Shown: positions 6,360-35,667 of the stretch, piece by piece | Position numbering within the stretch: the stretch's first letter is position 1 | Layout: each line of letters begins with the position of its first letter | NCBI GenBank assembly: GCA_964603595.1 | Contig: CAZRVN010000004.1 | Location: forward strand, 148,678 to 212,677 | From: an uncultured Actinomycetota bacterium | GTDB lineage: Bacteria > Actinomycetota > Humimicrobiia > Humimicrobiales > Humimicrobiaceae | Direction: 5' to 3' | Length of the DNA: 64,000 nucleotides | Program-made: the position numbers and the translations under genes | The notes under the pieces: model-generated | Database searches by the model: none | Seen by the model: the letters and a program-made list of their open reading frames with translations, nothing else | Told to the model about the DNA's origin: nothing

Positions 6360-6746
6360 TTAGTAAAAATCCTTAAAATCAACCCACTTGCTTTTTTTAT
6401 CAAGTTTTCTTATTTTTATTTCTTTTAATATTAAATTTTCTATTTCATTTTCATTTATTGGAGAGCCTATATCTTTCCCTAAAATATAGACATTTATCTT
6501 TTTTCTTTTAGCTCTACTTACAATATCTGATAAATTAGAAATTTTTCTGCTTATAATAACCATATCAATTCTTTCATATTCCAAAATAAAATTTACAGCA
6601 AAACTGCTATTTAAATTTATAAATTTAAATTTTTTGAATAAATTTTGAACTCTCTTAAATGTTTTAGTATCCCTATCTGCTAATATGATATTAAAAGAAT
6701 TAATATATTTACTTATTTTATCATTTATATTAGTATATATATCCAA
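6360..6746 (-). CDS. Hypothetical protein in a very AT-rich patch
   Basis: 128-aa ORF with no recognisable motifs. The local composition is visibly more AT-rich than the flanking housekeeping genes. Confidence 0.35.
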   Translation of the reverse strand: MDIYTNINDKISKYINSFNIILADRDTKTFKRVQNLFKKFKFINLNSSFAVNFILEYERIDMVIISRKISNLSDIVSRAKRKKINVYILGKDIGSPINENEIENLILKEIKIRKLDKKSKWVDFKDFY

Positions 6747-6892
6747 TAGTGCTTTTGTATATATGTATAATTTAAAGAAATTTGTTTTAGTAGGATAAAA
6801 TATATTATTAACTATGTCAATACTATTTCTATACCTATTATATACTATAATATTATATAAATATATTATTTAATATTTAATCACATTTAAAT

Positions 6893-7258
6893 TTGAATTT
6901 AAATGTACGATTAAAATACCTACAGGAAATGAGCCTTATGGAACAAATAATTGGAATTACAAATGCCAGAAACAATATCAAAGAAATTGTAGATGCTATA
7001 TCTGATAAAAATGAAACTTATATCGTCACAAGAGACTGTATCCCCGAAGCTGTAATAATCTCATACAAGAAATACATGGAAAATAAGAAGCTTCTTGAAA
7101 AGATTGTAGAACTTCAATATGAAAAATCAATGAAAAAATCACAGAGCCAATTTAAAGAATGGCTACAGCAAAAAGGATTTAGTATTAATAATCTATCCGA
7201 AGAAGAAATTGATGAGATGATTAAAAACTTACATATTAATAGTATTAACAAACATTAA
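6893..7258 (+). CDS. Phd/YefM-family type II antitoxin-like protein. The true start is probably the ATG at 6938.
   Basis: The core IIGITNARNNIKEIVDAISDKNETYIVTRDCIPEAVIISYKKYMENKKLLE matches the Phd/YefM N-terminal fold. An AGGAAA RBS precedes the ATG at 6938. No toxin ORF follows it. Confidence 0.6.
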   Translation: MNLNVRLKYLQEMSLMEQIIGITNARNNIKEIVDAISDKNETYIVTRDCIPEAVIISYKKYMENKKLLEKIVELQYEKSMKKSQSQFKEWLQQKGFSINNLSEEEIDEMIKNLHINSINKH

Positions 7259-8699: not shown

Positions 8700-9662
8700 T
8701 ACCTATCAAATTTAAAATTAGGCAATTATCCCTTGACATCACGTATATAATCTGGTATGATTATAGCATGATGAAAGATAAATTTACAATAAAAGACTTC
8801 AACAAAATGTATCCAGACGACAATGCTTGTCTTGATGAAATCTTTAACAATCGTTATGGTCATTTAAAATCATGTCCTTCCTGTAAAAAGAAAACTAATT
8901 TCTATAGAATAGAAAACCGTAAGGTCTATTCCTGTCAATACTGCGGTTATCAGATTAGCCCATTAGCCGATACCATATTTCATAAATCCTCTACTAGTTT
9001 AAAAGATTGGTTCTATTCTATCTATCTATTCTCTGTATCTAAAAATGGTGTTTCTGCTAAAGAGTTGGAACGTCAACTCGGAGTTACCTATAAATGTGCT
9101 TGGAGAATAGCCAAACAGATAAGACAACTGTTCAAACAGAATAAGGATTTATTGTCAGACATCATTGAGATTGACGAGACATATATCGGTGGTAAGCATA
9201 AAGGCAAAAGAGGTCGTGGCTCTGAAAATAAGACTCCGGTTGTGGGTTTAGCTCAACGAAAAGGGAACCTTAAAGCCAAAGTAGTTTCTAATACCAATTC
9301 CTATACCGTCCAGAATATAATGAGAGATAGTGTCCAACTTGGCTCAAATATTATGACTGATGAATATAGAAGCTATAATGTAGTAAGAAAATTAGGCTTC
9401 AATCATCAAACAGTCAGTCATTTCAAAGAACAATGGGCTAACGGTATAGCACACACCAACACAATCGAGGGCTTCTGGTCTCAACTAAAAAGGTCAATCA
9501 ATGGTACTTATCACTGTGTTTCCCCGAAGTATCTTCAGTCTTATGTTGACGAGTTTGTCTATCGCTATAATAATCGTCTTTCCCCTTTCCCGATTTTTCT
9601 AAGTCTGGTCTTATCGGCTGGGAAGCACGTTTAATTATCAATTTAAATTGCTTTTTATCTAC
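8700..9662 (+). mobile_element. IS1595-family insertion sequence with approximate boundaries. The terminal inverted repeats were not resolved.
   Basis: It is a single-transposase IS and is AT-rich. A TTGACA-N17-TATAAT promoter lies just upstream of the transposase ATG. Palindromic AATTTAAATT motifs sit near both flanks. I could not assign the ends confidently. Confidence 0.4.
8768..9634 (+). CDS. IS1595-family transposase, with an N-terminal zinc ribbon and a DDE domain
   Basis: CPSCKKK...CQYCG zinc-ribbon motifs are present. The IEIDETYIGGKHKGKRGRG...TDEYRSYN...GIAHTNTIEGFWSQLKR stretch matches the DDE_Tnp_IS1595 pattern. Confidence 0.8.
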   Translation: MMKDKFTIKDFNKMYPDDNACLDEIFNNRYGHLKSCPSCKKKTNFYRIENRKVYSCQYCGYQISPLADTIFHKSSTSLKDWFYSIYLFSVSKNGVSAKELERQLGVTYKCAWRIAKQIRQLFKQNKDLLSDIIEIDETYIGGKHKGKRGRGSENKTPVVGLAQRKGNLKAKVVSNTNSYTVQNIMRDSVQLGSNIMTDEYRSYNVVRKLGFNHQTVSHFKEQWANGIAHTNTIEGFWSQLKRSINGTYHCVSPKYLQSYVDEFVYRYNNRLSPFPIFLSLVLSAGKHV

Positions 9663-9676
9663 CATTTTTCTTATAT

Positions 9677-11938
9677 TTAAATAGAAAATTCAGAGAATTC
9701 TTCTTTAATTTTAAATTCAATACTTGTTATCTGTGAAGTATAATTTATTATTTTATGTATATTATCAGATATTTCCTTTTGGACATTCTTGTCTTTTGGT
9801 ATTGGTATAAGAATAGATTCAAAGACTTCTTTTCGGATTGATGGATAACCATTATTTAATAGCAATTTAGATGCATCAATGTTTAATAAACAAGCAAATA
9901 GATAGAGAGGTTTAATCCTATCGGCATGAGGTATTATACACGCAAAATGACTTACAACATATCCATCACAACCAAGAATCCCTCTATGATTTTTTAATAC
10001 AGTCTTTCCACTTTTCGGGAACAATATAGTCCCCTTGGGAAATTTATACAGATTCTCTATACCTCTTTCATTCAACTTATCTCTTGTTTTTATTAAATTA
10101 TAGGAAATATGTTCTCTTGCTAAATCTGATACTCTAAAGAATGGGTATACACCATCAGAAAATAACTCTGGATCCTGAGGCGCACTTTGTCCGAATTTTA
10201 TATCTGCTAATCTTGATAATGGGAAAGAATTAAAATCTTTTGACCTTAAACCCCTTTCTTCATAAATACTCTTTACCAACTGAAAACCTTTATTTTTAAT
10301 TTTATCTACCTCTAAAAAAGAAAATTCTATTCCATCAAGTAATTTGTCCAAATCATTATCCCCTTTTAAGGGTCTTCTGTAGTTATCTAGTGTAAAACCA
10401 TCATTCTTAACCTCGAAATACCATATTTTATTCTTTTTCTTGTTTTTAACTTTTATATATAGAATATTTGTCTTTTGTGGTGTATATGGTAGAAATACAC
10501 CATCGGGCAATGAGACTATTGTATGTAAGTCAAAATCCCTTATTATAAATTCTCTTTCTTTCCTATAAGTAGAATCGAAAAGAAAGCCTTCTGGAACAAT
10601 AATTCCGCACCTACTATTGTGATTAGCTTTATTTAGGGCTTTTAAACAATGTTGTATACAAATACTATCTCCGTTATCGGTTGGAAGATTATAAAAAGAA
10701 CCATGTGGCGTTTTGGTGGAAAAGGGTATATTAGTTATTACAATATCATATTTATTATCAATTGGGTTAACGAGACTATTAACTTTTTCTATATTGGAAT
10801 GACCATCCCCTATAAGTATCATATTCATTTTTGCAATTCTGGCAATGCTTGTTATTTCCCTTCCATATAATGATGATCTCTTCAAAACATTGATGGAATT
10901 TTCATTCTGTGGCATTGTACTTCTAATTTGCTTAAAAGATTCTGTGAGCATGCCGCCCGTTCCGCAAAATGGGTCGTATATAGTTTCACCAAACATTGGT
11001 CTCAGTAATTTAACCAAAGTCTTAATAATATGTCTTGGCGTAAAATATTGACCCAAATCATTATTATTACCACTACTATATGATTTTAAGAAATATTCAA
11101 AAGCATCTCCCTTTATATCGGTATTTGTATCGGTTAAATATAGAGGATCAATCATATCTATCAGATTTTTAAACGTATCAGGGTTTGTTATTTTAATATC
11201 CTCAAAAATACTCTTATCGTCAAACCTTTCCTTAAATTCCTTTAATACGACTTTTCCAACATAACTCAATAATTCTACAGGTCTTTTATCTCTAAAATAG
11301 TTCCACCTGTACTCAAGAGGAATATAATCTTTTTTACCACTATTTTCTTTTATTTCCTCTCTTTCGCTTATTAATTTCAAAAATAAAATATTGGCAAATT
11401 CGCTAAATCTTTCAACCCCAGCTTGTAGTCCTTCATCTCTAAGTAAGTCATTAGCTCTATCAAAAATTGAAATTAATTCTTTTCGAGAATTTATAACTTT
11501 TTTATCTAATGAAATATACTCATTATCATAAAGATAGTTTAATGCGAGTACTTCACTAATAAACTCTTCTACCTCCTCACCGTTTAAAAAGAGTGGTTTC
11601 TGTTTTTTTAAATGATATGTTTTTGTAAATACACCGTCAGTCGCATAAACTATCGGAGCGTCTATTTTTTGAGCATATAATACACCCTGTTTAATTGCTT
11701 TATCGATGTTTTCCTTAGGCTTTTTAGCTTCTATTATTATTAACGGCTCGTCTGATAATTTTCTATATAGAATATAGTCAGGCTTTAATCCACCTAATTT
11801 ATCATACTGCGTAGTAGTTTTGGGTTTTTGTTTGAAAACATTTCTTTGTGGACTTTGCGGATTATCATCCCAATTAAGATTTTTGAGTTGATTATCAACT
11901 AGAGTTTCTGTATCTCTTTCGTTTAATAAATTGCTCAT
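9677..11938 (-). CDS. Single-chain restriction-modification enzyme. It fuses a PD-(D/E)xK (HsdR_N/Mrr-like) nuclease domain, an N6-adenine DNA methyltransferase and an HsdS-like target-recognition domain (Type IIG-like).
   Basis: The N-terminus reads PDYILYRK...PLIIIEAKKP, a D...ExK nuclease motif. The middle carries methyltransferase motif I, YDPFCGTGGM, and a motif IV variant, DIVITNIPFS. The C-terminal roughly 180 aa resemble HsdS target-recognition domains. The total is 753 aa. Confidence 0.7.
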   Translation of the reverse strand: MSNLLNERDTETLVDNQLKNLNWDDNPQSPQRNVFKQKPKTTTQYDKLGGLKPDYILYRKLSDEPLIIIEAKKPKENIDKAIKQGVLYAQKIDAPIVYATDGVFTKTYHLKKQKPLFLNGEEVEEFISEVLALNYLYDNEYISLDKKVINSRKELISIFDRANDLLRDEGLQAGVERFSEFANILFLKLISEREEIKENSGKKDYIPLEYRWNYFRDKRPVELLSYVGKVVLKEFKERFDDKSIFEDIKITNPDTFKNLIDMIDPLYLTDTNTDIKGDAFEYFLKSYSSGNNNDLGQYFTPRHIIKTLVKLLRPMFGETIYDPFCGTGGMLTESFKQIRSTMPQNENSINVLKRSSLYGREITSIARIAKMNMILIGDGHSNIEKVNSLVNPIDNKYDIVITNIPFSTKTPHGSFYNLPTDNGDSICIQHCLKALNKANHNSRCGIIVPEGFLFDSTYRKEREFIIRDFDLHTIVSLPDGVFLPYTPQKTNILYIKVKNKKKNKIWYFEVKNDGFTLDNYRRPLKGDNDLDKLLDGIEFSFLEVDKIKNKGFQLVKSIYEERGLRSKDFNSFPLSRLADIKFGQSAPQDPELFSDGVYPFFRVSDLAREHISYNLIKTRDKLNERGIENLYKFPKGTILFPKSGKTVLKNHRGILGCDGYVVSHFACIIPHADRIKPLYLFACLLNIDASKLLLNNGYPSIRKEVFESILIPIPKDKNVQKEISDNIHKIINYTSQITSIEFKIKEEFSEFSI

Positions 11939-12082
11939 TTCTTAATCACCCTATAATTTTACCAAAGAATTTCTTGATATCATATTAAAACTTTCATAAT
12001 ATTTTTATGTATCAAAAAGACGGCAAGTGTACCTGTTATAAGGGGATACTCACCTAAAATTATATTAATTTCTGTTAGATAA

Positions 12083-22346: not shown

Positions 22347-22979
22347 ATGAATCAAGTTAAAAAAATTAAAAAACTGGAAAATCTCAGCTATTTTAATAAA
22401 GATACCATATCGCAGTTTGTTGATATAAATAAAAACGCTCTTTCGCAAGACGTTAAGAGATGGATTCAAAATGGTACTTTAATACAGCTAAAAAAGGGGT
22501 TTTATGTTACCTCAAATTATTTTGAAAGACTGGGAAACAAAACTCCATACCTTGAATTTATATCAAACAAACTGAGGGAGCCGTCATATCTAAGTCTGGA
22601 ATATATTTTACAAAAATACGGAGTATTAACGGAATCAATCTATTCTATTAATTCCATAACCATCAAATCAAGTAGAATATATAGAAACAATCTTGGTCTT
22701 TTTATATACAGGAATATAAAAGATGAGCTTTTTACAGGTTTTAATATCACGGAAAAAAATGGCTTTATAGTTAAGGAATCTACAAAAGCCAAGGCCCTTT
22801 TTGACTGGCTCTATTTAAGAATGTTAAGATTTAAAAAAATAGACCTTGCTGTGATGGAATCATTCAGATTGAATCTTGAAAACTTTAAGAAAAAAGATTT
22901 TAAGGAATTTAAAATATATTGTGAGCTTGCAGGTATAAAAAAATATTTAAAACTTGCAGAGATAATTAAAAAAATATAA
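22347..22979 (+). CDS. abiEi: AbiEi-like antitoxin/transcriptional regulator (type IV TA / abortive infection)
   Basis: 210 aa. It lies directly upstream of a DUF1814/AbiEii-family nucleotidyltransferase gene with a 10-nt gap. Its size and position fit AbiEi. Confidence 0.6.
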   Translation: MNQVKKIKKLENLSYFNKDTISQFVDINKNALSQDVKRWIQNGTLIQLKKGFYVTSNYFERLGNKTPYLEFISNKLREPSYLSLEYILQKYGVLTESIYSINSITIKSSRIYRNNLGLFIYRNIKDELFTGFNITEKNGFIVKESTKAKALFDWLYLRMLRFKKIDLAVMESFRLNLENFKKKDFKEFKIYCELAGIKKYLKLAEIIKKI

Positions 22980-22989
22980 CTGCTATAAA

Positions 22990-23841
22990 ATGATTTATAG
23001 AGAACTAGAAAAAATATTAATCGAAGAAAGAGACAGAGGCTCGCATGATGCTTATATCCTTAACTTATTAAAGGAGTATCTTCAGGTATATGTACTCTAC
23101 TTTATCTATACAAATTCTAAATATAATAAAAATCTTATTTTTACCGGCGGCACCTGCCTAAGACATTTTTATAATCTGCCGAGACTTTCAGAAGACATAG
23201 ATTTTGATTTTAAGGAGAATTTTGACCGTAAGATTTTGCTTGATGACCTTGAAGAATATTATAAAAAAAGATATAAGTATAATGAAATAAAGCTGGCTTT
23301 AAAGCAGCGCGGAGAACAGATATTGCTAAAGTTTCCAGTTTTACATAAACTGGGTCTGGCAGAAGAAGATAAAAGCAATCTGCTATTTGTAAAGCTCGAT
23401 TTTTCAGTAAACCCATCAAAATACTTTAACCTCGAGACTACTTCAAAATCCATTTATGGTTTTAATTTTGCGGCAGTTCATTATGACCTGTCTTCCCTTA
23501 TGTCCGGCAAAATACACGCTATTTTGGTAAGAAAAATATTTAAGGGTATCAATAATACCGAAGTGATTAGAGGCAGGGATTATTTTGACCTCCTATGGTT
23601 CTTAAAAAAATCTATCAGACCCAATCTAAAAAGACTTTCAGAAATGCTTGGCACCAGCATTAGCATGAATTTTCTTGTAAAACAACTGGATTTAAAAGTT
23701 AAGGAGCTTGCCAGGAAACATAAGTCATTTTTAAAATCTGACATTGCCCCACTTATAAGCAGCCCTGATTTTATAAAAATCTATGTGGATAATTATTACG
23801 AGGAATACATGAGAAATAAAAAGAATCTCTTCCAGGAATAA
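22990..23841 (+). CDS. abiEii: AbiEii/AbiGii-family nucleotidyltransferase toxin
   Basis: It carries LIFTGGTCLRHFYNLPRLSEDIDFDF, the GG[ST]xL and [DE]x[DE] nucleotidyltransferase motifs typical of AbiEii (DUF1814). The product is 283 aa. Confidence 0.7.
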   Translation: MIYRELEKILIEERDRGSHDAYILNLLKEYLQVYVLYFIYTNSKYNKNLIFTGGTCLRHFYNLPRLSEDIDFDFKENFDRKILLDDLEEYYKKRYKYNEIKLALKQRGEQILLKFPVLHKLGLAEEDKSNLLFVKLDFSVNPSKYFNLETTSKSIYGFNFAAVHYDLSSLMSGKIHAILVRKIFKGINNTEVIRGRDYFDLLWFLKKSIRPNLKRLSEMLGTSISMNFLVKQLDLKVKELARKHKSFLKSDIAPLISSPDFIKIYVDNYYEEYMRNKKNLFQE

Positions 23842-25342: not shown

Positions 25343-28300
25343 TTACTTCCTTCTGAACTTCTTTTTCAGTGAAGCTATGAACATTGCCAGTCCACCCAGT
25401 ATTATGGAAACACCGGATATTGGAATAGCAGGATTCATTCCAGTGAATGGAAGTTCCGTAATACCCAATACCTCTATCCCACCATCAGGAGGTGTCTTGG
25501 AGTTAGTTCTGCTGAAACTATGGTTTCTCTTAGCCGAATTAACTTCTATTCCAGTAATATCACTCATTTTTGAATAACCTGACGGCACGGTAGTTTCTAC
25601 AATTCTGTAGGTACCGAATGGGAGATTTCCCCAGCTTACAGTACCATTTCCGGTTATCTTCTTTTCTCCGCCAACTGCAGCACCATTTGAATCATACAGG
25701 GTAAATCCTGCAACATCGGTAGAGTCAAGCCCGCTCTTTGTAAGGGTTACCGAACCACGATAGCTAACCTTTTTCGTGTTTTCTCTGTCAAAGGTGTAGC
25801 TCTGCTGGCCTTCATTTCTGGAATCAATAACTATTCCGGTAATATCTGCTATAGTATTATATCCGGAAGGAGTGGTTGTTTCCTTTATTGAGTATGTATC
25901 CCACTCAAGATCCGTCCAGACAACCGAACCGTTACCTGTTACCGTCTTTTCTCCTCCTACAGGATTATTACTTGAATCATACAGTGTAAATCCTGCAGTA
26001 TCATCATAATCAAGACCGCTCTTATTAAGTGTTATATCTCCAGGTATCCTCGGGTCAGCTATTTCCTGCGTAAGGATAACATTCGGAGTTTCGCTATTCA
26101 AACCAAATACAAACTCACCGATAGGCGGATTCCCGAAAAGCAGATATCCCGCTGGAGCACTTGCTTCTACCACTTTATAAGTTCCATATGGCAAGTCTAT
26201 CCATTTGTAGTGGCCATCAGGACCAAGGATCTGTGTATCAACCAGAATCCATGAACCCTCTCTATACAATTCAAATGTTGATCCGCCAAGAGGCAGCCCT
26301 GTAACAGCATCAGTCTTGAATATTTCAATGGAGCCCTTCTCGGCACAGTTCTCTATAACTACGGGAACTTCTGCACCTATATCACCTTCAATTGTTCCTG
26401 ACCATACCGGATTAGAAACTGTGTAGGTATATAAATTGGTTATTCCATTAAAGTCTTCAAGTATGTAGTAATCACCATAAGGAAGGTCTATCCAGCTTGC
26501 AGTTCCGCCGTTTGATACTGTCTGCGGTGAAGTAGCGATCAGGTTATCACTAGAATCATACAGTGACAGATTTGCCTCATCGTCTCCTTCAAGCCCTATC
26601 TTTGTAACTGTAATGGAGCCCTTCTCTGCAGTGTTTACCACTTCGACCGTAGGATTTTCGTTATCCGGACCGATAACTACCGGGTCGGATGATAGGTCTG
26701 TTGTGTAAGTAAATACGTTACCTGAAGGATAACTCTCTGTTAGGGTATAAGAGCCAAATGGAAGGTCAATCCATCCACCTGTTCCACCTTCACTCAGAGT
26801 GATATCAGTATAAGGGCCACCAGGGCCAGAAAGTGAGAATATTGCCTGGTCGCTCTCTTCCAGTCCAGTCTTGTGAACCGAAATGGAACCCTTCTCGGCA
26901 GTATTAGTTATAGTATCAGTTTCATCACCATCAACAGTGATATTAGCTACCGGATTAGAAACCGTATAGGTATATACGTTGGTTATTCCATTAAAGTCTT
27001 CAAGTATGTAGTAATCACCATAAGGAAGATCTATCCAGCTTGCAGTTCCGCCGTTTGATACTATCTGCGGTGAAGTGGCAATCAGGTTATCACTAGAATC
27101 ATACAGCGAAAGGTTTGCCTGATCATTACCTTCAAGACCTGTCTTTGTAACTGTAATTGAACCCTTCTCGGCAGTGTTGACTACCTCAATCGTCGGCCAT
27201 GTATTATCCGGGCCAATTATTATAGGATCGGACGAGAGGTCTGTTGTGTAAGTATATACGTTACCAGACGGATATGTTTCGGTTAAAGTGTAGCTACCAT
27301 ATGGCAGTTGTTGCCAGTGAATACTTCCATGATTCCATATCGACGCACCACCATAAGATACTCCGCCTGGGCCTGTAAGTGTAAAGGTCGCCCTATCGCT
27401 TCCCTCAAGACCTGTCTTGTGGACCGTAAGGTCGCCCATCTCGGCAGTGTTAGTTATGGTGTCAGTCTCATCACCATCAACGGTAATGTTTGCAACAGGA
27501 TTAGAAACCGTATAGGTATAGACGTTGGTTATTCCATTAAAGTCTTCGACTATATAGTAGCCGCCGTAAGGAAGGTCTATCCAGCTTGCCAATCCACCAT
27601 TTGATACTGTCTGCGGTGAAGTGGCAATCAGGTTATCACTAGAATCATACAGTGAAAGGTTTGCCTGATCATTACCTTTAAGACCCATCTTTGTAACCGT
27701 AATGGAGCCCATCTCGGCAGTGTTAGTTATGGTATCAGTTTCATCACCATTAACGGTAATATCAGCAACAGGATTAGAAACCGTATAGGTATATACGTTG
27801 GTTATTCCATTAAAGTCTTCGACTATATAGTAGCCGCCATAAGGAAGATCTATCCAGCTTGCCAATCCACCATTTGATACTGTCTGTGGTGAAGTGGCGA
27901 TCAGGTTATCACTAGAATCATACAGCGAGAGGTTTGCCTCATCGTCTCCTTCAAGACCTGTCTTTGTAACTGTAATGGAGCCCAAAGGACAATCTACGAT
28001 ATCTTCAACTGCATTTAATGCGCCACCTGTCATGAATAATGCGGTTCCTCCGATATAAACAGTATAAGTAGCCGTATCAACGGCGTATCCCGGAGGAGCA
28101 CTTTCTTCAGTTAACGAATATGTACCCCATGGCAGTCCATCTATAAATGCATTGCCATCCACATCTGTGGTTAAAGTATATTCCGTTACATCAGGTGTGA
28201 AAGTCTGGCCGCCGATATAGGTCAGCTTGTATACCGCACCTTCAACCGGACCCTGGGTCTCGGAATCAGTCTTGTTAAGCTCAAAGCTTCCCCATGCAGT

Positions 28301-29704
28301 ATAAGTGCCGGAATCGTCATCACACGGCTCACTGTAGCTTTCTATAACGAATCTCTGGTCGTATGCTTCGGGGTATGTGATTTCCTCATCATGCCATTCC
28401 CTATCTTCAAAGTAGTAGCCAGCAGGTTTGGTAACCGAAGGGGCACCATTTTCCCAATGACTCCATACTATACCAGTCTCTTGTGTCCAGTATGTACCTA
28501 TCCAAACATCTTCATACGTCCCATAAATTCCGTCCTGTCCCTGTTTTTCAGTAACTACCATCTTACCGGCATTGAAATAGTCAATATCCACATTATCCGG
28601 ATTTTCAGTAATTACATCTCCATTTACGTCAGTTGCAACTATATGCGGGGAATTATAAGATCCCGGATCCTCTGTATCATCATAATCAGGATTTTCAATA
28701 GTCTGTATAACATTCATATTTGAATTGAACTCATCAAGGTCTTCTCCCTGTTCCTTGTCAATCTCTCCATCCTCATCAATATCAAGACATGCGCCTATGT
28801 TAACAGACATTTCCTCAAATTCGGAATAACCTTCTCCCCACCAGTAGAAATAGTATGGGATGCTTGCAAAACCGTAATTATCATCGGTTATCGCGCCATC
28901 GCCATCGGTATCCTCGGCATTACTGCCGTCATTATCATCCTCGTAATCATACATAGTGGAAGTAGTTTCAAGTACAAGGTCCGTCTGTGAAAAACTGACA
29001 TTATATGAACCCAAGAGCACATACCAGGAAACAGTTTTACCTTCATCGGTAATACCCGGAACCAGAGGATTTTCCATTGTAGCAGTAGCTTCAAATTCAT
29101 TATAATCGCCATTTTCATCTACCAGAGTATCCGCATCAAGGGCCACTTCTACTTCATTTACATTTTCATCATCCAGATATTCCTGCAACGACACGTCATT
29201 ACTAGGATCAGTATCATTGTTTTCAGGCAGTGCGACAAAACCATCTGCCATGGTCATAACTGCAAGTACTACTTCTTCCACATCATCATTAGGAGTGTAG
29301 TCCACATTATTATCTATTATATCCCACACAGCATCCTGATTTTGACCATCGGTAGCACCTGTAGCAGTTGTTGCCATGATCTCGGCTGCCTCAGCATTTA
29401 CTTCATCAACACCATTTGCCTGAAGCTCATCCGATACATCCGTACCTGTTTCGCTGTAAGCATCCGTAGCGTCGGTCAAGGTTACATCTTCATCCACACA
29501 ATAAACATCCATCTCTTCACCTGCAGGCGCCTCCTCAGGTTCATCGGAATAATCAGCATCATTAGGATCCATTTCATATTGGCCATTATCCGGTCCTTCT
29601 GCAGTTGAATTATCACCGGGTTCACCAAATAGGAAAGATGGTGCTGTGAAGAATACGATAAGAACAATCCCCAGGCATAACGCCATAAGTCTTTTTAATT
29701 TCAT
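25343..29704 (-). CDS. Giant sortase-anchored surface protein. It has a signal peptide, an acidic region, tandem Cna-B/SpaA-like domains and an LPFTG sorting signal.
   Basis: 1453 aa. The signal peptide reads MKLKRLMALCLGIVLIVFFTAPSFLFG. The N-terminal 300 aa are D/E-rich. SpaA-type motifs TYxxxExxAPxGY occur (TYKVVEASAPAGY, TYRIVETTVPSGY). The C-terminus reads ELPFTGMNPAIPISGVSIILGGLAMFIASLKKKFRRK, which is a sorting motif, a transmembrane segment and a basic tail. Confidence 0.85.
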   Translation of the reverse strand: MKLKRLMALCLGIVLIVFFTAPSFLFGEPGDNSTAEGPDNGQYEMDPNDADYSDEPEEAPAGEEMDVYCVDEDVTLTDATDAYSETGTDVSDELQANGVDEVNAEAAEIMATTATGATDGQNQDAVWDIIDNNVDYTPNDDVEEVVLAVMTMADGFVALPENNDTDPSNDVSLQEYLDDENVNEVEVALDADTLVDENGDYNEFEATATMENPLVPGITDEGKTVSWYVLLGSYNVSFSQTDLVLETTSTMYDYEDDNDGSNAEDTDGDGAITDDNYGFASIPYYFYWWGEGYSEFEEMSVNIGACLDIDEDGEIDKEQGEDLDEFNSNMNVIQTIENPDYDDTEDPGSYNSPHIVATDVNGDVITENPDNVDIDYFNAGKMVVTEKQGQDGIYGTYEDVWIGTYWTQETGIVWSHWENGAPSVTKPAGYYFEDREWHDEEITYPEAYDQRFVIESYSEPCDDDSGTYTAWGSFELNKTDSETQGPVEGAVYKLTYIGGQTFTPDVTEYTLTTDVDGNAFIDGLPWGTYSLTEESAPPGYAVDTATYTVYIGGTALFMTGGALNAVEDIVDCPLGSITVTKTGLEGDDEANLSLYDSSDNLIATSPQTVSNGGLASWIDLPYGGYYIVEDFNGITNVYTYTVSNPVADITVNGDETDTITNTAEMGSITVTKMGLKGNDQANLSLYDSSDNLIATSPQTVSNGGLASWIDLPYGGYYIVEDFNGITNVYTYTVSNPVANITVDGDETDTITNTAEMGDLTVHKTGLEGSDRATFTLTGPGGVSYGGASIWNHGSIHWQQLPYGSYTLTETYPSGNVYTYTTDLSSDPIIIGPDNTWPTIEVVNTAEKGSITVTKTGLEGNDQANLSLYDSSDNLIATSPQIVSNGGTASWIDLPYGDYYILEDFNGITNVYTYTVSNPVANITVDGDETDTITNTAEKGSISVHKTGLEESDQAIFSLSGPGGPYTDITLSEGGTGGWIDLPFGSYTLTESYPSGNVFTYTTDLSSDPVVIGPDNENPTVEVVNTAEKGSITVTKIGLEGDDEANLSLYDSSDNLIATSPQTVSNGGTASWIDLPYGDYYILEDFNGITNLYTYTVSNPVWSGTIEGDIGAEVPVVIENCAEKGSIEIFKTDAVTGLPLGGSTFELYREGSWILVDTQILGPDGHYKWIDLPYGTYKVVEASAPAGYLLFGNPPIGEFVFGLNSETPNVILTQEIADPRIPGDITLNKSGLDYDDTAGFTLYDSSNNPVGGEKTVTGNGSVVWTDLEWDTYSIKETTTPSGYNTIADITGIVIDSRNEGQQSYTFDRENTKKVSYRGSVTLTKSGLDSTDVAGFTLYDSNGAAVGGEKKITGNGTVSWGNLPFGTYRIVETTVPSGYSKMSDITGIEVNSAKRNHSFSRTNSKTPPDGGIEVLGITELPFTGMNPAIPISGVSIILGGLAMFIASLKKKFRRK
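26317..27982 (-). repeat. Tandem near-identical repeats of about 280 bp inside the surface-protein gene
   Basis: Protein-level units of about 92 aa (GSITVTKTGLEG.D.ANLSLYDSSDNLIATSPQTVSNGG.ASWIDLPYG.YYI.EDFNGITNVYTYTVSNPVA.ITV.GDETDTITNTAE) recur four times. They are interleaved with two copies of a related B unit. Long stretches are visibly identical at the nucleotide level. Confidence 0.8.
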
Positions 29705-29754
29705 ATCCTTTCACCTCCCAATAATAAACACATATTGATTATTTTATTTTTCAT
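29701..29754 (-). other. Possible 17-codon upstream ORF (MKNKIINMCLLLGGERI) translationally coupled to the surface-protein gene
   Basis: A GGGGG RBS sits 8 nt upstream of its ATG. Its TGA stop overlaps the main ATG in an ATGA arrangement. Confidence 0.25.
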
Positions 29755-30060
29755 TATTTTTTCCCCCTCTTTATTTTAGGTTAATTTATTATTTAAAACC
29801 GACCCCCATAGCCAGTTGAGTTATTTTTAAAAATCCCTATATAAATACAAAAACCGACTACATTTAGTCGGTTTCGCTATTTGCTCCTCTTTTCTCAAGC
29901 GTCCAAATTAGAGAAAAGCATCAAAGCTACTAAATCAAAAATTAAGCTATTTCTTCCTTTGCTCTCTATTCAATAAAAGTATTTTATAAATTTTATATAA
30001 CTATAATATTTAAGTGATGAAATTATACTACATCTTTAAGAAAAATACCAAACTTTTTTT
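29705..30060 (-). promoter_or_regulatory. Promoter plus structured 5' leader (copy 1 of a duplicated ~200-bp element) upstream of the LPFTG protein gene
   Basis: On the minus strand there is a -35/-10-like pair near 30040-30010. Hairpin B (CTTTTCTC...GAGAAAAG, 29888-29918) comes next. Hairpin A (CCGACT-N6-AGTCGG, 29854-29871) follows and is trailed by UUUUU. Confidence 0.5.
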
Positions 30061-30177
30061 ATAAAACTGTTATTTTAATAAAACTATAGTCAGACATTTT
30101 TTATATATCTATAATACAATATTCTAATTATAAAATGCCCTTATATTAAAATCACCTTATAATTTATTACTTATATC

Positions 30178-31248
30178 CTAAAAATCCACTTCAACTCCCG
30201 CATCCCTTAATTCATCTACCTGGCTTTCATCTGCAACAGGATTGCCTTTAATATAAAGCTTCTGTAAATTCGGAAGTTCCTTTAAAGCTGAGATGTCTGT
30301 TATTTCATTATCTTCCAGCCAGAGTGATTCAAGGCTTTTAATCTTTGAAAGTGATGAAATATCAGATATCTTATTCTTTGAAAGAGCCAGCTGCTTTAGA
30401 TTTTCCAACTCTGCCAGCGGTGATATATCTTCTATCTCACACTCGCTGAGACTTACAATCTCTAATTTTTCCATTTCACCCAGCGCTGATATATCTGATA
30501 ACGGGTTATTGCCCAGCATAATTAATACAAGATTAGATAAGCTTGATAACGGGCTGATATCTGATACATTATTGTTAGCCAGGGAAAGGTTCTTTAGATT
30601 TTTTAATTCAGATATAGCGCCAACATCTGCTATCTGGTTCCTGTTTAAACCCAGAACCTCTAAATTAGTAAGTTCTAATAAAGAGGGGATATCTACAATC
30701 AGATTATTATCCAGAACAGCCACCTTTAATTTATCAAGACCTATTAATGGAGAGATGTCTAATATTTCATTTTTGCCCAGACTGACACTTTCTAAATTTA
30801 CTAAATCCTCAAGCGGTCCTATATCTGTTATTTTATTATCATTCAGCCCGAGATTTGCAAGACTGTTAATATTAGAAAGAGGTGATATGTTACTGATTAG
30901 ATTACCATTTAGATTTAATATACGTAGTTTTGTAAGTTTTGACAGGGGTGATATATCAGTTATTTCATTATTGTTTAAACTTAGATTTTCTAAGTTTACA
31001 GCATCTTCAACGCCTGAGATAGTTTTTATCTCCATATTGTCTGCAAATAATTTATCCATTGACTCCATATCTTCAGCGCTTATTTCTTCACCGGTTATGC
31101 CCAGCTCTTCCTTCTCAGCTTTTAAAAGGTTCGGGTCGCTTGCTCTCTTAAATAAACTGCATCCCGGAATACTAACTGATATAATTAACGCTAAAATAAA
31201 TACCGGTGCTGCATAAATAAATTTTTTCATATATATCTTATGTTCCAT
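30178..31248 (-). CDS. Leucine-rich-repeat (internalin-like, 22-residue LRR) lipoprotein
   Basis: About 12 tandem LRRs of the form NLxxLxLxxNxIxDISPLxxLxxL are present. The N-terminus MEHKIYMKKFIYAAPVFILALIISVSIPGC is a signal peptide with a lipobox Cys. The track ORF start at 31341 would read through a terminator hairpin and is rejected. Confidence 0.75.
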   Translation of the reverse strand: MEHKIYMKKFIYAAPVFILALIISVSIPGCSLFKRASDPNLLKAEKEELGITGEEISAEDMESMDKLFADNMEIKTISGVEDAVNLENLSLNNNEITDISPLSKLTKLRILNLNGNLISNISPLSNINSLANLGLNDNKITDIGPLEDLVNLESVSLGKNEILDISPLIGLDKLKVAVLDNNLIVDIPSLLELTNLEVLGLNRNQIADVGAISELKNLKNLSLANNNVSDISPLSSLSNLVLIMLGNNPLSDISALGEMEKLEIVSLSECEIEDISPLAELENLKQLALSKNKISDISSLSKIKSLESLWLEDNEITDISALKELPNLQKLYIKGNPVADESQVDELRDAGVEVDF

Positions 31249-31429
31249 TTGAAATTTAAATAAAAAAAACCGACTGCATTTAGTCGGTTTCGCTACTTGC
31301 TCCTCTTTTCTCAAAGCGTCCAAATTAGAGAAAAGTATCAAAGCACCTAAATTAAAATAAATATTTTAATATCTAAATTATTATATTTTTATAACGGGAT
31401 TATATTACATTTTTTACTAAAATGTCAAA
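31231..31429 (-). promoter_or_regulatory. Promoter plus structured 5' leader (copy 2 of the duplicated element) upstream of the LRR lipoprotein gene
   Basis: The minus strand carries TTGACA (31429-31424) and a TATAAT-like -10 (31404-31399). Hairpin B is next. Hairpin A (31270-31287) comes next, followed by eight U residues that end about 14-30 nt before the start codon. Confidence 0.55.
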
Positions 31430-31548
31430 CTTTTCTTATAAAATAATTTTTTTTAAGCTTTTACTGCAGCAACCGTTGAATTAAGAAACTATAATCCAGT
31501 ATCAATCCTTATTTTATTATTAACAATAATAATGATAATATTTCCCCT

Positions 31549-32181
31549 ATGAAAATAAAAAAATTCTATAAAAAACATAAAATAAAAATTATAAGATACA
31601 CCGGAATAGCCCTGATAATAATGGGGCTTTCGGTTATAATATGGCCCTTCTACACCAGCTTTATCATGGCAAGAAGAGAACTGGATATACTCTCCTCATG
31701 GGAAGAAGAAACGGAATTAACCGGCGGTGAAAAAGGTGATGGAATAAATGGAAAGCTTGAAAAAGAAAATATTCCCGTTGATACAGAGAAAAAAGTCCCT
31801 TTCAGGATTACAATCCCCGATATTGAGCTGGACTGGATTGTCAATAAAGGAACCGACTACGCAACTTTAAGAAAAGGACCGGGCTATTACATATCCTCTG
31901 CTCTCCCGGGCGAAGAAGGCACCTGCCTTGTGGCCGGTCACAGGACTACCTACGGTGCTCCCTTTAATAGACTGGGTGAGCTTGAAGAAGGTGACGAAAT
32001 AATAATAGAGACAGAAGGTAACGAAAAATTCACCTATATAGTTACGGGTATGGAAGCTGTACTCCCCACTGACATGTCTGTCCTTGAAAATACTGATTAC
32101 CCTTCCCTGGTGCTGTCAACCTGTACACCAAAATATTATGCCACGAGAAGACTTATAATATATGCAAGGATTGCAGAATAA
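31549..32181 (+). CDS. Sortase (copy 3)
   Basis: It has a transmembrane anchor and the motifs AGHRTTYGAPFNRLGEL and LVLSTCTP, followed by the conserved Arg. The product is 210 aa. Confidence 0.8.
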   Translation: MKIKKFYKKHKIKIIRYTGIALIIMGLSVIIWPFYTSFIMARRELDILSSWEEETELTGGEKGDGINGKLEKENIPVDTEKKVPFRITIPDIELDWIVNKGTDYATLRKGPGYYISSALPGEEGTCLVAGHRTTYGAPFNRLGELEEGDEIIIETEGNEKFTYIVTGMEAVLPTDMSVLENTDYPSLVLSTCTPKYYATRRLIIYARIAE

Positions 32182-32496
32182 TCGGAATTTAAGAAGAATA
32201 ATTTAAGAATAATAGTTATTCCGGTTACCAGTGTTACCGGCAATTTTTGATTGGCTTAAATAATTATATATAACCTCTTTTACAGCAGCTATCTTTAGAC
32301 AGGTACATTCTAAATGCCATTTAAAAAAAATTAACCTTGTTTTATCCTGTTTTTATTAATCCGGGTTAATAATAAACTTTTTTAAAAATGCTAAACCCAT
32401 TTACTAAAGTTTAGTTAACTTCAACAAGCAGCTCATCGGCAGTGTATTGATATTGTATTTAAAAAAGTGAGTATTTAAGTAAAAGTTTAGTAAAAA

Positions 32497-32545
32497 AAGG
32501 GGGGTAAGTTCTCAAACTCTTGGACGCCTGAATTAACTTACCCGA
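32497..32545 (+). terminator. Hairpin with a T-tract in the 666-bp non-coding gap
   Basis: GGGTAAGTT-24 nt-AACTTACCC is followed by GATTTTT. It is about 320 nt downstream of sortase 3. Confidence 0.3.
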
Positions 32546-32847
32546 TTTTTAATTCTATCACGATTGTTTTTTAATTCAATATAATAATGATAAAATTCTA
32601 ATTATTTTGTTGTAATTTTATAATAGCCATATAATAAATTCGGCAAATTTAATAAATATTTAGTAAATGGATAAAAAAACATAAATATTTTCTGGGCGGG
32701 TTAATACAAAGTTAATACAGATTAAATCATTAACTTTAATCTACTACTTACTGCCTGCCTATAAACTCCCTGTAATCCAGCTCCTGCCGCCGGATATTTA
32801 TCTACTTTTTTTATTTATTATCATCTTTCATGCAGCCAGCATAAATA

Positions 32848-33660
32848 TTAATCAAGATATGAATGTGCATACAATGTTTTATTGGTCAGTATCTCAAAAG
32901 TTCTGACAGCATTCATTAATTCCCTGTCAAGCGGATTAACTATAGCGCTATCAAGACCGTTGCTTAAAAGTATTACAAGATATATCCTGTTAATAAGACT
33001 CTTAAGTTTGTGAGGAGAAGACTGGGAAACATTGCTTAGCCCCACTATAGTTTTTGGCTCGTCATCAAGTCCCATTACTTCCTTAAGTTCCTTAAATGCC
33101 TTCAGTGCGTTAATACAATTTAATACCTGCTCCTGAAGGACAGATACCGGCAGGATTAAAGGATCCAGATACAAATCCCCTGCAGGCACTCCATATTCCA
33201 GCGCAGAATTAACTATATCTATAGCTATTTCTAACCTGCTGTCAACATCGGGGGGCACCCCTTTTTTGGTTAAAGCAATTCCCACGATTTTACTGTTATA
33301 CTTCTTCGCCATGGGCATAAGAATATCAAGCTTATCCCTATCACCTGTAACAGAATTAATCATGGCAACGCCCTTATGTACTTTCAGACCTGCTTCAATA
33401 GCACTTATATTTTTAGTATCAAGAGAAAGATTTACATCTACCTCAGATTGAATGCTTGTAACCATCCACTTCATTAGTTCTTCGCCATTTTTTGTTGCCG
33501 GGCCTATGTTTACATCTATATAGTTCGCGCCTGCTTCTTTCTGCTCTTTTGCTATCTTAATAATGGGCTCTGCATTTCTTTCCTTAACCGCACTGCCTAT
33601 AACCTCTGAAGTTACAGTTATATTTTCCCCTACTATTAACATATTTCTCCCCAGACTCAT
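32848..33660 (-). CDS. acsE: Methyltetrahydrofolate:corrinoid/iron-sulfur protein methyltransferase (pterin-binding, AcsE/MtrH-like)
   Basis: 270 aa. LDTKNISAIEAGLKVHKGVAMINS, DLYLDPLILP and GLSNVSQ are close to Moorella AcsE motifs as I recall them. It lies near the acs cluster. Confidence 0.7.
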   Translation of the reverse strand: MSLGRNMLIVGENITVTSEVIGSAVKERNAEPIIKIAKEQKEAGANYIDVNIGPATKNGEELMKWMVTSIQSEVDVNLSLDTKNISAIEAGLKVHKGVAMINSVTGDRDKLDILMPMAKKYNSKIVGIALTKKGVPPDVDSRLEIAIDIVNSALEYGVPAGDLYLDPLILPVSVLQEQVLNCINALKAFKELKEVMGLDDEPKTIVGLSNVSQSSPHKLKSLINRIYLVILLSNGLDSAIVNPLDRELMNAVRTFEILTNKTLYAHSYLD

Positions 33661-33765
33661 GAATTTATAATATTAAAACACGAAAGACTGCGAAAAATAA
33701 TTACAACATTAAAACTAATTTAAAAGTTAATCCGCTCGCCTAAAAACACCCCATCAATCATATCA

Positions 33766-34569
33766 TTAAGATTCGTAATCAAACCACTTACTGTAAATTT
33801 CATCATAGGTTCCATCTTCCTTAATCTCTTCAAGGATGCTGTCGACTTCCTCTTTTAATGTGCTCCCTTCACTAAAGACAATTCCAAATTCTTTGCTTGA
33901 TTTTACTACTTCCAGCACACTATAAATCCCGGTATTTCCAGTGATAAGATTAACCCCCACGGGAAGGGAAAGAAACATTCCGCCAATATCCTTATTCTTC
34001 AGGGCATCAATCATAATAACTACATCATTATATCTTTCAACTTCAAAATTAAGCAGATAATCCTCATCAATGTATTTTTCTTCGCTACTCAATATCCCTA
34101 AGGGTCCCCCCTCCATATTTTCCTTAATCTTGATATCGGCCTCATCTAAGACAATTAACATATACTCCATAGTAAAATAAGGAATTGAAAAATCAACTAT
34201 ATCGTCTTTATCAGGTAATATTGGAATAGCTGATATAACCATATCAAGTTTTATATCCCCGGGAATCTGGTAGCTGCTCTCCCAGTCTATTTGCACTATT
34301 TCTAAATCCTTCTCCATCCTGCTGGCAATTTCTGTTGCAATATCAATATCAAAACCCTCAACATTACCATCTTCCATAAACTCAAAAGCTGGATATGTAG
34401 GGTCGCAGCCCACCATAAGGTTTGACCCTATATTATTTATATCTCCGGCATTATCCCTGGTCCTGCAACCACCTGAATTCAGAAGCAAAAAAATAATTAT
34501 GCCGGCAATAATCACATATATAAAAAATAAAGAAGTATTCTTATTTTTTTGTATAAAATTTAAAAACAT
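33766..34569 (-). CDS. Family-3 periplasmic solute-binding lipoprotein (amino-acid type). It is orphaned, with no adjacent permease or ATPase.
   Basis: It has a signal peptide with an LLNSGGC lipobox and an SBP_bac_3-like fold pattern. Confidence 0.55.
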   Translation of the reverse strand: MFLNFIQKNKNTSLFFIYVIIAGIIIFLLLNSGGCRTRDNAGDINNIGSNLMVGCDPTYPAFEFMEDGNVEGFDIDIATEIASRMEKDLEIVQIDWESSYQIPGDIKLDMVISAIPILPDKDDIVDFSIPYFTMEYMLIVLDEADIKIKENMEGGPLGILSSEEKYIDEDYLLNFEVERYNDVVIMIDALKNKDIGGMFLSLPVGVNLITGNTGIYSVLEVVKSSKEFGIVFSEGSTLKEEVDSILEEIKEDGTYDEIYSKWFDYES

Positions 34570-35026
34570 TTAAAAAATTTACTTTTCATTTAAGTTATAT
34601 GCTCATAATTAATTTACCATAGGTTAAATTTTATTAGAATTAAATTATTTTTCAAGCAATATTTTGGCTTTACCACGCCATAGTTTTAGAAGCATATAAA
34701 TGATAAATATATGATTTTAAAATATAAATATAAAACTCTATTAAATGATTATAAAAAACTCTAATTAATTCATGTATAAAAGTATTTTATATCCTACTCA
34801 TTATATGTTAAAATTAATAGTGTAGAGTACTAATATTATTTAATAATATCAGTATTTTTAATATTTTAAGTAAAAATAGATAGAGGAAGTGCTCAAATAC
34901 GGGTTCTAAATATAAGTTTACAGGTTGATTTGATTTTTACTTAAAAATAGTATAAAGTATTTCAAGTTTTATTTTGGAAATGTTTTGACGGACTGAAAAA
35001 ATTATTAAAAAGGTTGGTGAATAAAA

Positions 35027-35464: not shown

Positions 35465-35667
35465 AACTGATTACCTGTAATAAATATATTTTTACATTGC
35501 TAGTCCGGAAAGCTGGTTAGAGGAAAAATATAAGAAAATTTTAAAATTATTTTCGGCTGAGATTTATGTTAGTGTAATCATATTAAAAAAATTTTTCCCT
35601 CGTGTATTTGTCAGGATTAAATTATGCAATAGTATTTATATAATTAATACATAATACATATATCTTT

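Follow-up and report, generated by a model that had tools for sequence, protein, structure and literature searches.

Positions 8721-12054 of the window (the whole stretch of 64,000 nucleotides that was analysed) very probably form an IS1595-family transporter IS with a single-chain restriction-modification enzyme as its passenger, and the enzyme is predicted to work in a HaeIV-like manner. This one transposable unit of 3334 bp holds both the transposase gene and the gene of the 753-aa enzyme (Table 1). The two open reading frames and their convergent arrangement are as given in the original prediction, which had been made from the sequence alone. The gap between them is 42 bp and not 43 bp, and the feature, previously ended at 11938, reaches 12062. 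The enzyme gene had also been described as abutting an IS1595-family element. An IS1595 transposase gene is present; the enzyme gene, however, does not abut an IS but lies inside an IS-type element, the two genes having shared ends and one target duplication.

Table 1. Features of the element and of its passenger gene, in window coordinates.
Feature	Position	Strand	Basis
Target-site duplication, left copy, TAAAATTA (8 bp)	8713..8720	.	Direct reading; identical to 12055-12062
Left terminal inverted repeat (IRL), GGCAATTATCCCTTGACATCACGTAT	8721..8746	+	Matches conserved left end GGTAAYTATCCCTTGACATCAAGTA of related elements
Promoter-like site, transposase gene (TTGACA, 17 nt, TATGAT, upstream TG)	8733..8761	+	Consensus match, 11/12
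IS1595-family transposase gene, 288 aa, Zn ribbon and DDE domain	8768..9634	+	Pfam/NCBIfam above cut-offs, full domain length
42-bp spacer between convergent genes	9635..9676	.	Homologous to 3' end of sister passenger gene
Passenger gene, single-chain nuclease-methyltransferase-specificity protein, 753 aa	9677..11938	-	ORF and domain profiles
HsdS-type target-recognition domain (aa 567-715), then single long helix (aa 717-752)	9683..10240	-	Pfam Methylase_S, structure model
HsdM-like helical region (aa 146-265) and gamma-class N6-adenine methyltransferase core (aa 273-535)	10334..11503	-	Profiles, motifs
PD-(D/E)xK nuclease domain, N-terminal (aa 1-140)	11519..11938	-	Conserved E7, P53-D54, E70-x-K72, Q84-xxx-Y88
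Promoter-like site, passenger gene, extended -10 (TGGTAAAAT), within element	11956..11983	-	Consensus match
Right terminal inverted repeat (IRR), inward on minus strand, GGTGAGTATCCCCTTATAACAGGTAC	12029..12054	-	Matches right ends of sister elements
Target-site duplication, right copy, TAAAATTA (8 bp)	12055..12062	.	Exact repeat of 8713-8720

Domains and Family of the Passenger Enzyme

The passenger protein combines a nuclease, a gamma-class methyltransferase and an HsdS-type recognition domain in a single polypeptide, as had been predicted from the motifs PDYILYRK...IIIEAKK, DPFCGTGGM and NIPF, all of which are present. The profile check proposed with that prediction returned Pfam N6_Mtase at aa 273-535 (148.8 bits), Methylase_S at aa 567-738 (44.9 bits, one recognition domain) and HSDR_N at aa 30-109 (26.6 bits, just over the cut-off of 25.1). 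Motif I (D322-PFCGTGG, aa 322-329) stands ahead of motif IV (N403-I-P-F, aa 403-406), both are invariant among homologues, and the recognition domain is C-terminal. The methyltransferase region matched the Type I M subunits 5ybb (1e-40) and 3ufb with phmmer, and its Foldseek match was at 4e-23. The full structure model (pLDDT 83) contains one recognition domain and one terminal helix of 36 residues. Among homologues whose other domains stay 50-60% identical, recognition domains are of two sorts, related (41-73% identity) or unrelated (~15%).

The public annotation of the enzyme family is "N-6 DNA methylase," and together with the marginal HSDR_N match it lends some weight to the view that the protein is a methyltransferase-specificity fusion only, that is, an orphan methylase, an epigenetic methylase or the element's own "vaccination" gene against restriction, with an N-terminal domain that is non-catalytic and serves DNA binding or regulation. 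This view is unlikely to be correct, because the full catalytic set of the nuclease (E7, PD54, E70xK72, and Q84xxxY88) is invariant or nearly so in homologues of 43-75% identity, and such conservation would be unexpected for a dead domain. The set also aligns with the catalytic residues of HsdR, and the N-terminal profile and predicted fold match the active nucleases of HsdR and BpuSI, so that the alignment of this region with nuclease domains, on which the first reading had depended, is borne out by sequence, conservation and predicted fold. We infer that the 753-aa protein is a self-contained single-polypeptide restriction-modification enzyme with predicted activity; the predicted nuclease could be inactive, or could be used only in some hosts.

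Homologues of the enzyme number in the thousands and are mostly either 750-800 aa long, with one recognition domain, or ~950 aa long, with two. The C-terminal part comprises 194 aa in the window protein and ~190-230 aa in the one-domain type, versus ~375-387 aa in the two-domain relatives. The commonest length in this large family is 750-800 aa, and the terms "unusually compact" and "novel" that had been applied to the enzyme are therefore withdrawn. Close homologues are solitary genes in unrelated contexts, with neither an HsdR nor an HsdS neighbour.

Several other assignments were considered and rejected. Truncation of the gene by the IS was ruled out, as homologues align over 97-100% of the length and are of the same size. 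Assignment to MADS (as the MAD2 methyltransferase) was rejected with NF047738 at 99 bits against a cut-off of 720 and with the partner mad genes absent, and assignments to BREX and Type I systems from weak HMM matches fell below cut-offs and lacked partners. Membership of the MmeI/BpuSI family was likewise rejected, MmeI_Mtase scoring 17.3 bits against a cut-off of 27 and the recognition domain being of the Methylase_S type.

Ends of the Element and its Empty Site

The transposase matched Pfam DDE_Tnp_IS1595 (4e-46, 157 bits, cut-off 27), Pfam Zn_ribbon_IS1595 (35 bits, cut-off 25.4) and NCBIfam transpos_IS1595 (210 bits, cut-off 75). It is 76-89% identical to the full-length transposases of related elements, and its gene is apparently intact. 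The promoter-like site of the gene is kept in related elements and is overlapped by the IRL.

The ends of the element were recognised only through comparison with sister elements, and generic repeat finding in the region returned AT-rich noise only. Similarity to related elements begins at the IRL (8721). The terminal repeats have the consensus GGYRAnTATCCC..., and each end is adjoined by TAAAATTA; for any one element, the chance that 8 bases at a fixed place agree exactly is ~2e-4. Within the window copy the IRL and IRR are imperfect repeats of each other, identical at 13 of the first 20 positions, each being recognised mainly by the family consensus. The IRR agrees with the right ends of sister elements, for example GGCAAGTATCCCCTTATATCAGGTAT in L093, at about 22 of 26 positions by manual count. 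Further IS copies were sought across the window and none was found, and a tRNA scan of the window also found none.

The host belongs to a lineage of uncultured low-GC Actinomycetota that is known from metagenomes only. The element is inserted in the AT-rich spacer between two housekeeping genes, gatB and pfk. In the two closest relatives, L006 and L009, gatB is followed by a spacer of ~310 bp and pfk, and the transposase and enzyme genes are both absent. At the homologous point L006 has a single unbroken ...ATATAATTTTAAA..., and the window sequence minus the element and one copy of the duplication aligns colinearly and seamlessly with the gatB-pfk spacer of L006, whose proteins share 79% (GatB) and 80% (PFK) identity with those of the window. 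The L008 locus, with no PFK match beside gatB, was left out of this empty-site comparison. The proposal of a mobile islet, for which a presence/absence comparison had been suggested, is strengthened by the absence of the segment from the two nearest relatives.

Both genes had been called clearly more AT-rich than the genes beside them. The enzyme gene (29.9% GC) is clearly AT-rich, and the transposase gene (36.2%) is only slightly under the window as a whole (37.4%); the flanking pfk and gatB genes have 40.4 and 43.2% GC. The window contains ~16 other AT-rich patches. A simple IS of ~1 kb that landed beside a separately acquired restriction-modification gene, leaving two neighbours and not one unit, would be in keeping with the GC difference between the two genes, with their convergent orientation, and with the closest homologues of the enzyme gene, which are not beside IS1595 transposases. 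A search for IS-borne close homologues found that P0002, P0008, and P0010 are not IS-borne, and DNA similarity to these three is limited to the coding region. Such an adjacency is nevertheless very improbable and is largely refuted by the anatomy of the locus. The 42 bp that separate the stop codons of the two genes were searched for a right-end repeat, and none was present; the sole right-end repeat, at 12054, lies beyond the enzyme gene, and the 8-bp duplication flanks the entire 3.3-kb unit. The two genes are missing jointly from the relatives, reconstruction of the empty site leaves no seam, and the sister elements all have passengers in the same slot.

When the exact transposase protein was looked up in public assemblies only the same locus was returned, and metagenome contigs with an identical transposase all have it at the same insertion site. 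Current mobility is unproven, given the single copy in the window and the one insertion site in all these contigs; the presence of sister elements at different sites suggests that the element is mobile.

Sister Elements and their Cargo

The clade of sister elements was assembled from metagenome contigs. The repeat consensus and exact 8-bp duplications bound five close sister elements (L090, L093, L094, L096, and L098), and the same ends also bound at least 12 more distant elements; the 8-bp rule holds in at least 17 sister elements, and the related elements that share these ends and duplications number at least 18. Related elements are each 1.6-3.8 kb long and the transposase gene takes up only ~0.85 kb, so that every one of them carries cargo besides the transposase gene. 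The commonest passenger is a proteasome-like protein. ClpP-like proteases and nucleases of the PBECR3 or NYN type also occur, as do a Dam-type methyltransferase accompanied by a nuclease and a further, unrelated restriction-modification gene of the single-chain type. The same ends, the 8-bp duplications and the passengers in all related elements point to the window element as an IS1595-family transporter IS with defence cargo.

The 42-bp spacer is homologous to the stretch in which the usual proteasome-like passenger gene of the sister elements ends, with its final codons and its stop, and DNA similarity to these elements extends to 9665-9679 and ends at the stop codon of the enzyme gene. The spacer is probably the scar of a cargo replacement, a reading that is suggestive only, as the spacer is short and AT-rich. 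It is possible, though for now doubtful, that this clade of IS1595 transposons is specialised as a small vehicle for defence or toxin modules of one or two genes, with a slot that is exchangeable at a fixed junction by the transposase stop codon. If this were true, the proteasome-like gene that recurs as a passenger would have a defence or addiction function not yet characterised, and new compact defence systems could in practice be found by following these elements.

Comparison with Known Systems

The original description of the IS1595 family is said to be that of Siguier et al. (2009). Elements of this family are described as producing AT-rich 8-bp direct repeats (PMC12561309), and the transporter IS, an IS with a passenger gene, is described for the family in the TnCentral preprint (bioRxiv 10.1101/2021.05.26.445724). 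Like these, the window element has a DDE transposase with a Zn ribbon, GG-starting repeats at both ends, an AT-rich 8-bp duplication and a passenger between the ends; its clade is set apart by recurrent passengers of the proteasome-like or ClpP-like protease, small nuclease and restriction-modification types. Furuta, Abe and Kobayashi (2010) have reported restriction-modification genes that are enclosed by inverted repeats and a duplication of 8 bp and whose insertion site is cleanly empty in a relative, and their Neisseria gonorrhoeae unit comprises a Type IIG gene, an S gene and a transposase-like gene (COG3677) (PMC2853133). The Type IIG gene of that unit is truncated and its transposase-like gene probably inactive, whereas both genes of the window element appear intact. 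Unlike the units of Furuta et al., the window element has ends that are defined by a whole family of sister elements.

Among single-chain enzymes, AloI, PpiI, TstI, and CjeI (Type IIB) share with the window protein the order nuclease, methyltransferase and HsdS-like specificity in one chain. They differ from it in being ~1250 aa long, with two recognition domains and asymmetric sites; TstI forms a tetramer. A double-length C-terminal part is likewise found in the ~950-aa relatives of the window protein. BpuSI had been named as an example of the architecture. The recognition domains of BpuSI and of the MmeI-type monomeric Type IIG enzymes are not HsdS-type, unlike that of the window protein, and these enzymes have contiguous asymmetric sites with cutting on one side; the published layout of HaeIV fits better. 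Piekarowicz et al. (1999) is reportedly the source work on HaeIV, a Type IIG/IIB enzyme of Haemophilus aegyptius. HaeIV is given as R~gammaM~[GAY] in dimeric form, with cuts to either side of its symmetric site GAY N5 RTC, at 7/13 GAY N5 RTC 14/9 (Table 4 of PMC3874165; PMC4027205). Judged by the published layout of HaeIV, the window protein resembles it: in both, a single chain has a nuclease at its N terminus, a gamma-class methyltransferase and, at its C terminus, one recognition domain, with no motor domain or partner genes.

It is hardly credible that the 753-aa protein represents the M~S portion of a Type I-like system with a separate motor/nuclease subunit elsewhere and the N-terminal domain as a docking module, for although the closest similarities of its methyltransferase and recognition domains are to Type I HsdM and HsdS, profiles found no helicase/translocase domain (HsdR motor) in the protein, no HsdR gene occurs within the element and no HsdR-like gene beside homologues in the four different contexts looked up, and a passenger dependent on a chromosomal partner would fail after transposition to a new host.

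Proposed Mechanism

For a transporter IS with a self-contained enzyme as passenger, the following course of events may be envisaged. The element's own DDE transposase would have recognised both imperfect terminal repeats, and the whole 3334-bp unit would have been inserted into the AT-rich gatB-pfk spacer with duplication of the 8 bp TAAAATTA. The enzyme gene probably took the place of a proteasome-like passenger, a cargo swap that is suggested by the point at which similarity to the sister elements stops, the stop codon of the enzyme gene.

The enzyme chains would pair through their C-terminal helices, as half-size S subunits do, a proposal drawn from architecture alone. The resulting homodimer would place two identical recognition domains in inverted orientation, and the target should for this reason be a symmetric bipartite sequence. 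Host sites would be methylated on both strands, and incoming DNA that lacks methylation would be cleaved at fixed distances from the site, probably to either side of it, with no translocation driven by ATP; HaeIV behaves in this way. The enzyme most likely works as a homodimer whose target is symmetric and bipartite and is cleaved to either side.

Significance

The element is a clean example of a known route by which bacterial defence genes spread; the enzyme is not of a new kind, and current concepts are unchanged. A complete restriction-modification enzyme is seen here moving as the passenger of a minimal transposon at base-pair resolution, with its ends, its target duplication and its empty site, which supports the view that restriction-modification genes are mobile in their own right. 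The enzyme itself is a candidate compact Type IIB-like nuclease, and the sister elements provide a ready set of small, possibly defence-related cargo genes.

Insertion and ends of the element

Two convergent ORFs, 42 bp apart, were found where the original prediction had placed them (Table). The 288-aa product matched Pfam DDE_Tnp_IS1595 at 4e-46 over the entire domain, as well as the IS1595 zinc ribbon, and scored 210 bits against NCBIfam IS1595 (cut-off 75). By sequence, it is the predicted IS1595-family transposase. The GC content is 29.9% in the fusion (nuclease-methyltransferase-specificity) gene, 36.2% in the transposase gene, 40.4% in pfk, 43.2% in gatB and 37.4% in the window, so that the AT-richness ascribed to both ORFs is clear for the fusion gene but marginal for the transposase gene. 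Because about 16 further AT-rich patches exist elsewhere in the window, composition by itself is a weak signal here.

A GatB scan with one genome per species shows that the host belongs to an uncultured low-GC Actinomycetota lineage. In its two nearest relatives, L006 (GatB 79% and PFK 80% identical to the window) and L009 (68 and 72%), just an AT-rich spacer of about 310 bp separates gatB from pfk, and both the enzyme gene and the transposase gene are absent from this spacer. The gatB-pfk segment with both genes is an insertion in the window organism, which supports its supposed mobility. After removal of the element and one duplication copy, the window aligned continuously with the L006 spacer, in which the sequence ...ATATAATTTTAAA... 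spans the junction point.

Related transposase loci were gathered from metagenomes and their flanks compared. DNA similarity to these sister loci begins at window position ~8705-8727, with the conserved end GGTAAYTATCCCTTGACATCAAG, and extends to 9635-9679, reaching the enzyme gene's stop codon or ending short of it. Nearly all sister loci hold a convergent gene after the transposase gene, in the same slot as the enzyme gene. When the end motif was searched on both strands of each locus, the partner repeat was located past the passenger gene in every case; the window copy ends at 12054 and reads GGTGAGTATCCCCTTATAACAGG inward on the minus strand. Exact 8-bp direct repeats flank the element of the window and those of five sister loci (L090, L093, L094, L096 and L098); an exact 8-mer match at a given position has a chance probability of ~2e-4 per element. 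A blind scan for an exact 8-bp duplication with matching ends added no fewer than 12 more distant elements, whose ends read GGYRACTAT..., all of 1.6-3.8 kb and therefore all carrying cargo. In agreement with this, AT-rich 8-bp duplications are attributed to IS1595-family elements (PMC12561309), and ISs with passenger genes, known as transporter ISs, are described as occurring only in the IS1595 and IS66 families (bioRxiv 10.1101/2021.05.26.445724). Shared ends, exact duplications, sister elements and the seamless empty site of L006 identify the feature as a 3334-bp IS1595-family transporter IS, which carries the enzyme gene as passenger. The IS does not abut the gene as a neighbour, the arrangement first proposed.

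Positions of the features, in window coordinates unless a locus is named
Feature	Position	Strand	Size	Sequence
Transporter IS	8721-12054		3334 bp	
Transposase ORF	8768..9634	+	288 aa	
Fusion enzyme ORF	9677..11938	-	753 aa	
Target duplication, window	8713-8720 and 12055-12062		8 bp	TAAAATTA
Target duplication, L093			8 bp	AAAAATTA
Target duplication, L090			8 bp	TAATATTA
Target duplication, L094			8 bp	TATTAGAA
Target duplication, L096			8 bp	ATACTTTA
Target duplication, L098			8 bp	TTTATTTA
Proteasome-like passenger	L094:1058-1885			
Proteasome-like passenger	L091:3895-4923			
Proteasome-like passenger	L092:3909-4628			
Element with second fusion gene	L112:1100-4797			
Element with two-gene system	L129:2870-5286			ATTATTTT (duplication)
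ORF at left flank of transposon	L089:280-660			...GILTDGYEWRFYNNKR (ORF end)
Contig of closest enzyme homologue	L168:1-10724			
Very AT-rich region	6360-7258			
Unannotated ORF	6360-6746		128 aa	
Phd/YefM-type antitoxin-like ORF	6893-7258			
Second AT-rich patch	22347-23841			
AbiEii-type toxin gene	22990-23841			
Pilin and repressor-sensor region	25343-36729			
SpaA-domain pilin-like protein	25343-29704		1453 aa	
Sortase gene	31549-32181			
BlaI/BlaR1-like pair	35027-36729			

The passenger enzyme

Pfam searches of the 753-aa protein returned the predicted three-part layout: HSDR_N at aa 30-109 (26.6 bits, barely over the cut-off of 25.1), N6_Mtase at aa 273-535 (148.8 bits) and a single Methylase_S match at aa 567-738 (44.9 bits). 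In PADLOC and PDB sequence searches the central part grouped with Type I M subunits (e.g., 5ybb, 1e-40). Scoring of 8000 candidates from a large protein collection gave 3678 significant matches, the best 120 of which have a common architecture. Most homologues are 750-800 aa long, with a C-terminal part of ~190-230 aa and one recognition domain; others, of ~880 aa or ~945-975 aa, have a C-terminal part of ~375-387 aa and two. The protein, described earlier as unusually compact, is typical of the commonest class.

In an alignment of 47 homologues (43-75% identity), E7, P53-D54, E70, K72 and Y88 of the nuclease domain are invariant and Q84 nearly so; methyltransferase motifs I (D322-P-x-C-G-T-G-G) and IV (N403-x-P405) are also invariant. 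The E7/PD54/E70xK72/Q84/Y88 set matches the PD...ExK plus QxxxY signature of Type I HsdR nucleases. Comparisons of the N-terminal domain gave 13.7 with the HsdR fragment 3h1t, 10.2 with BpuSI, 7.1 with DrdV and 7.0 with EcoR124I HsdR. The PD-(D/E)xK region thus aligns with nucleases and keeps its catalytic residues invariant. The failure to align that would have refuted the nuclease assignment did not occur; the N-terminus has the pattern of a nuclease domain kept by purifying selection. The same invariance makes the main competing reading, in which the N-terminus of a methylase is non-catalytic, less likely.

The full-length predicted model (pLDDT 83, pTM 0.75) has one recognition domain and after it a single helix of 36 residues, an arrangement that, as modelled, is the same as in half-size S subunits, which pair into a two-domain reader. 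HaeIV of Haemophilus aegyptius is a published enzyme sharing this layout; it is listed in PMC3874165 as a dimer of R~gammaM~[GAY], cutting 7/13 GAY N5 RTC 14/9, and is reported in PMC4027205 to form homodimers. By analogy, the enzyme would dimerise via its C-terminal helix, the dimer would read a symmetric bipartite site and methylate one adenine per half-site, and unmodified DNA would be cut on both sides at fixed distances without ATP. All steps taken jointly, this mechanism is somewhat favoured. The enzyme has no helicase or motor domain, and no HsdR gene accompanies it or the homologues looked at.

Identity within the family is 50-60% in the nuclease and methyltransferase parts; recognition domains are either related (41-73%) or unrelated (~15%), a pattern that commonly marks specificity shuffling. 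The close homologues stand alone, in gene contexts that are unrelated to one another; more distant ones, 42-48% identical over the nuclease-methyltransferase part, occur on plasmids and in temperate Acinetobacter phages. The closest homologue (75%) lies on a plasmid-like contig, L168, from one of the metagenomes that contain the window organism. The contig also has ParA-like, HTH and RPA replication genes and one further restriction-modification pair, N6_N4_Mtase plus RE_CfrBI.

Passengers of the sister elements

In most close relatives (loci L088-L103) the passenger is a PF00227 proteasome-like protein of 240-340 aa, convergent with the transposase gene and often with a Ser/Pro/Glu-rich tail. 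The 42 bp past the transposase stop codon of the window, a short stretch, resemble the final codons of this gene. The similarity suggests cargo replacement, in which the enzyme gene would have taken the place of an earlier proteasome-like passenger. L093, inserted between rdgB and rph, carries a ClpP/SDH-like protease; L096 and L098 have extra PBECR3 or NYN nuclease genes; and L131, L135 and L150 carry KilA-N, P63C and Bro-N proteins. L129 carries a D12 Dam-type methyltransferase together with a PDDEXK_11 nuclease, a two-gene Type II-like system bounded by perfect 20-bp ends. In L112, a more distant element of the clade, the passenger is a second nuclease-methyltransferase-specificity gene; it contains a frameshift and the transposase gene an in-frame stop, so that both are disrupted. 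This element is a decayed second capture of restriction-modification cargo. Since the window and L112 enzymes are merely 26% identical, such cargo was captured more than once by the transposon clade. The left flank of the L089 transposon is an ORF whose end resembles that of an HSDR_N-type nuclease domain, and the transposon may here have landed in, or next to, a further restriction gene.

Other features of the window

The AbiEii-type nucleotidyltransferase toxin gene is preceded by a 210-aa ORF without a Pfam match, and the two are probably an AbiE-type toxin-antitoxin or abortive-infection pair. The region around the Phd/YefM-like ORF has a GC content of 19-28%, and no toxin gene is visible downstream of that ORF. 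A Phd-like gene (56% identity) also follows pfk in L009, which places this gene outside the insertion. The BlaI/BlaR1-like repressor-sensor pair lies in another AT-rich region.

Known and new aspects

Both components are of known kinds, namely single-chain Type IIG/IIB enzymes (HaeIV, AloI, TstI) and IS1595 transporter ISs, and the enzyme is not a new kind. Furuta et al. (2010; PMC2853133) have reported restriction-modification units with inverted repeats, 8-bp duplications and empty sites, including one from Neisseria in which a Type IIG gene is accompanied by an S gene and a transposase-like gene; the Type IIG gene is truncated there, whereas the window example is apparently intact. The newness is limited to an apparently intact restriction-modification transporter IS in an uncultured actinomycete, base-precise ends backed by a family of sister elements, and a transposon clade that repeatedly carries small defence-like passengers.
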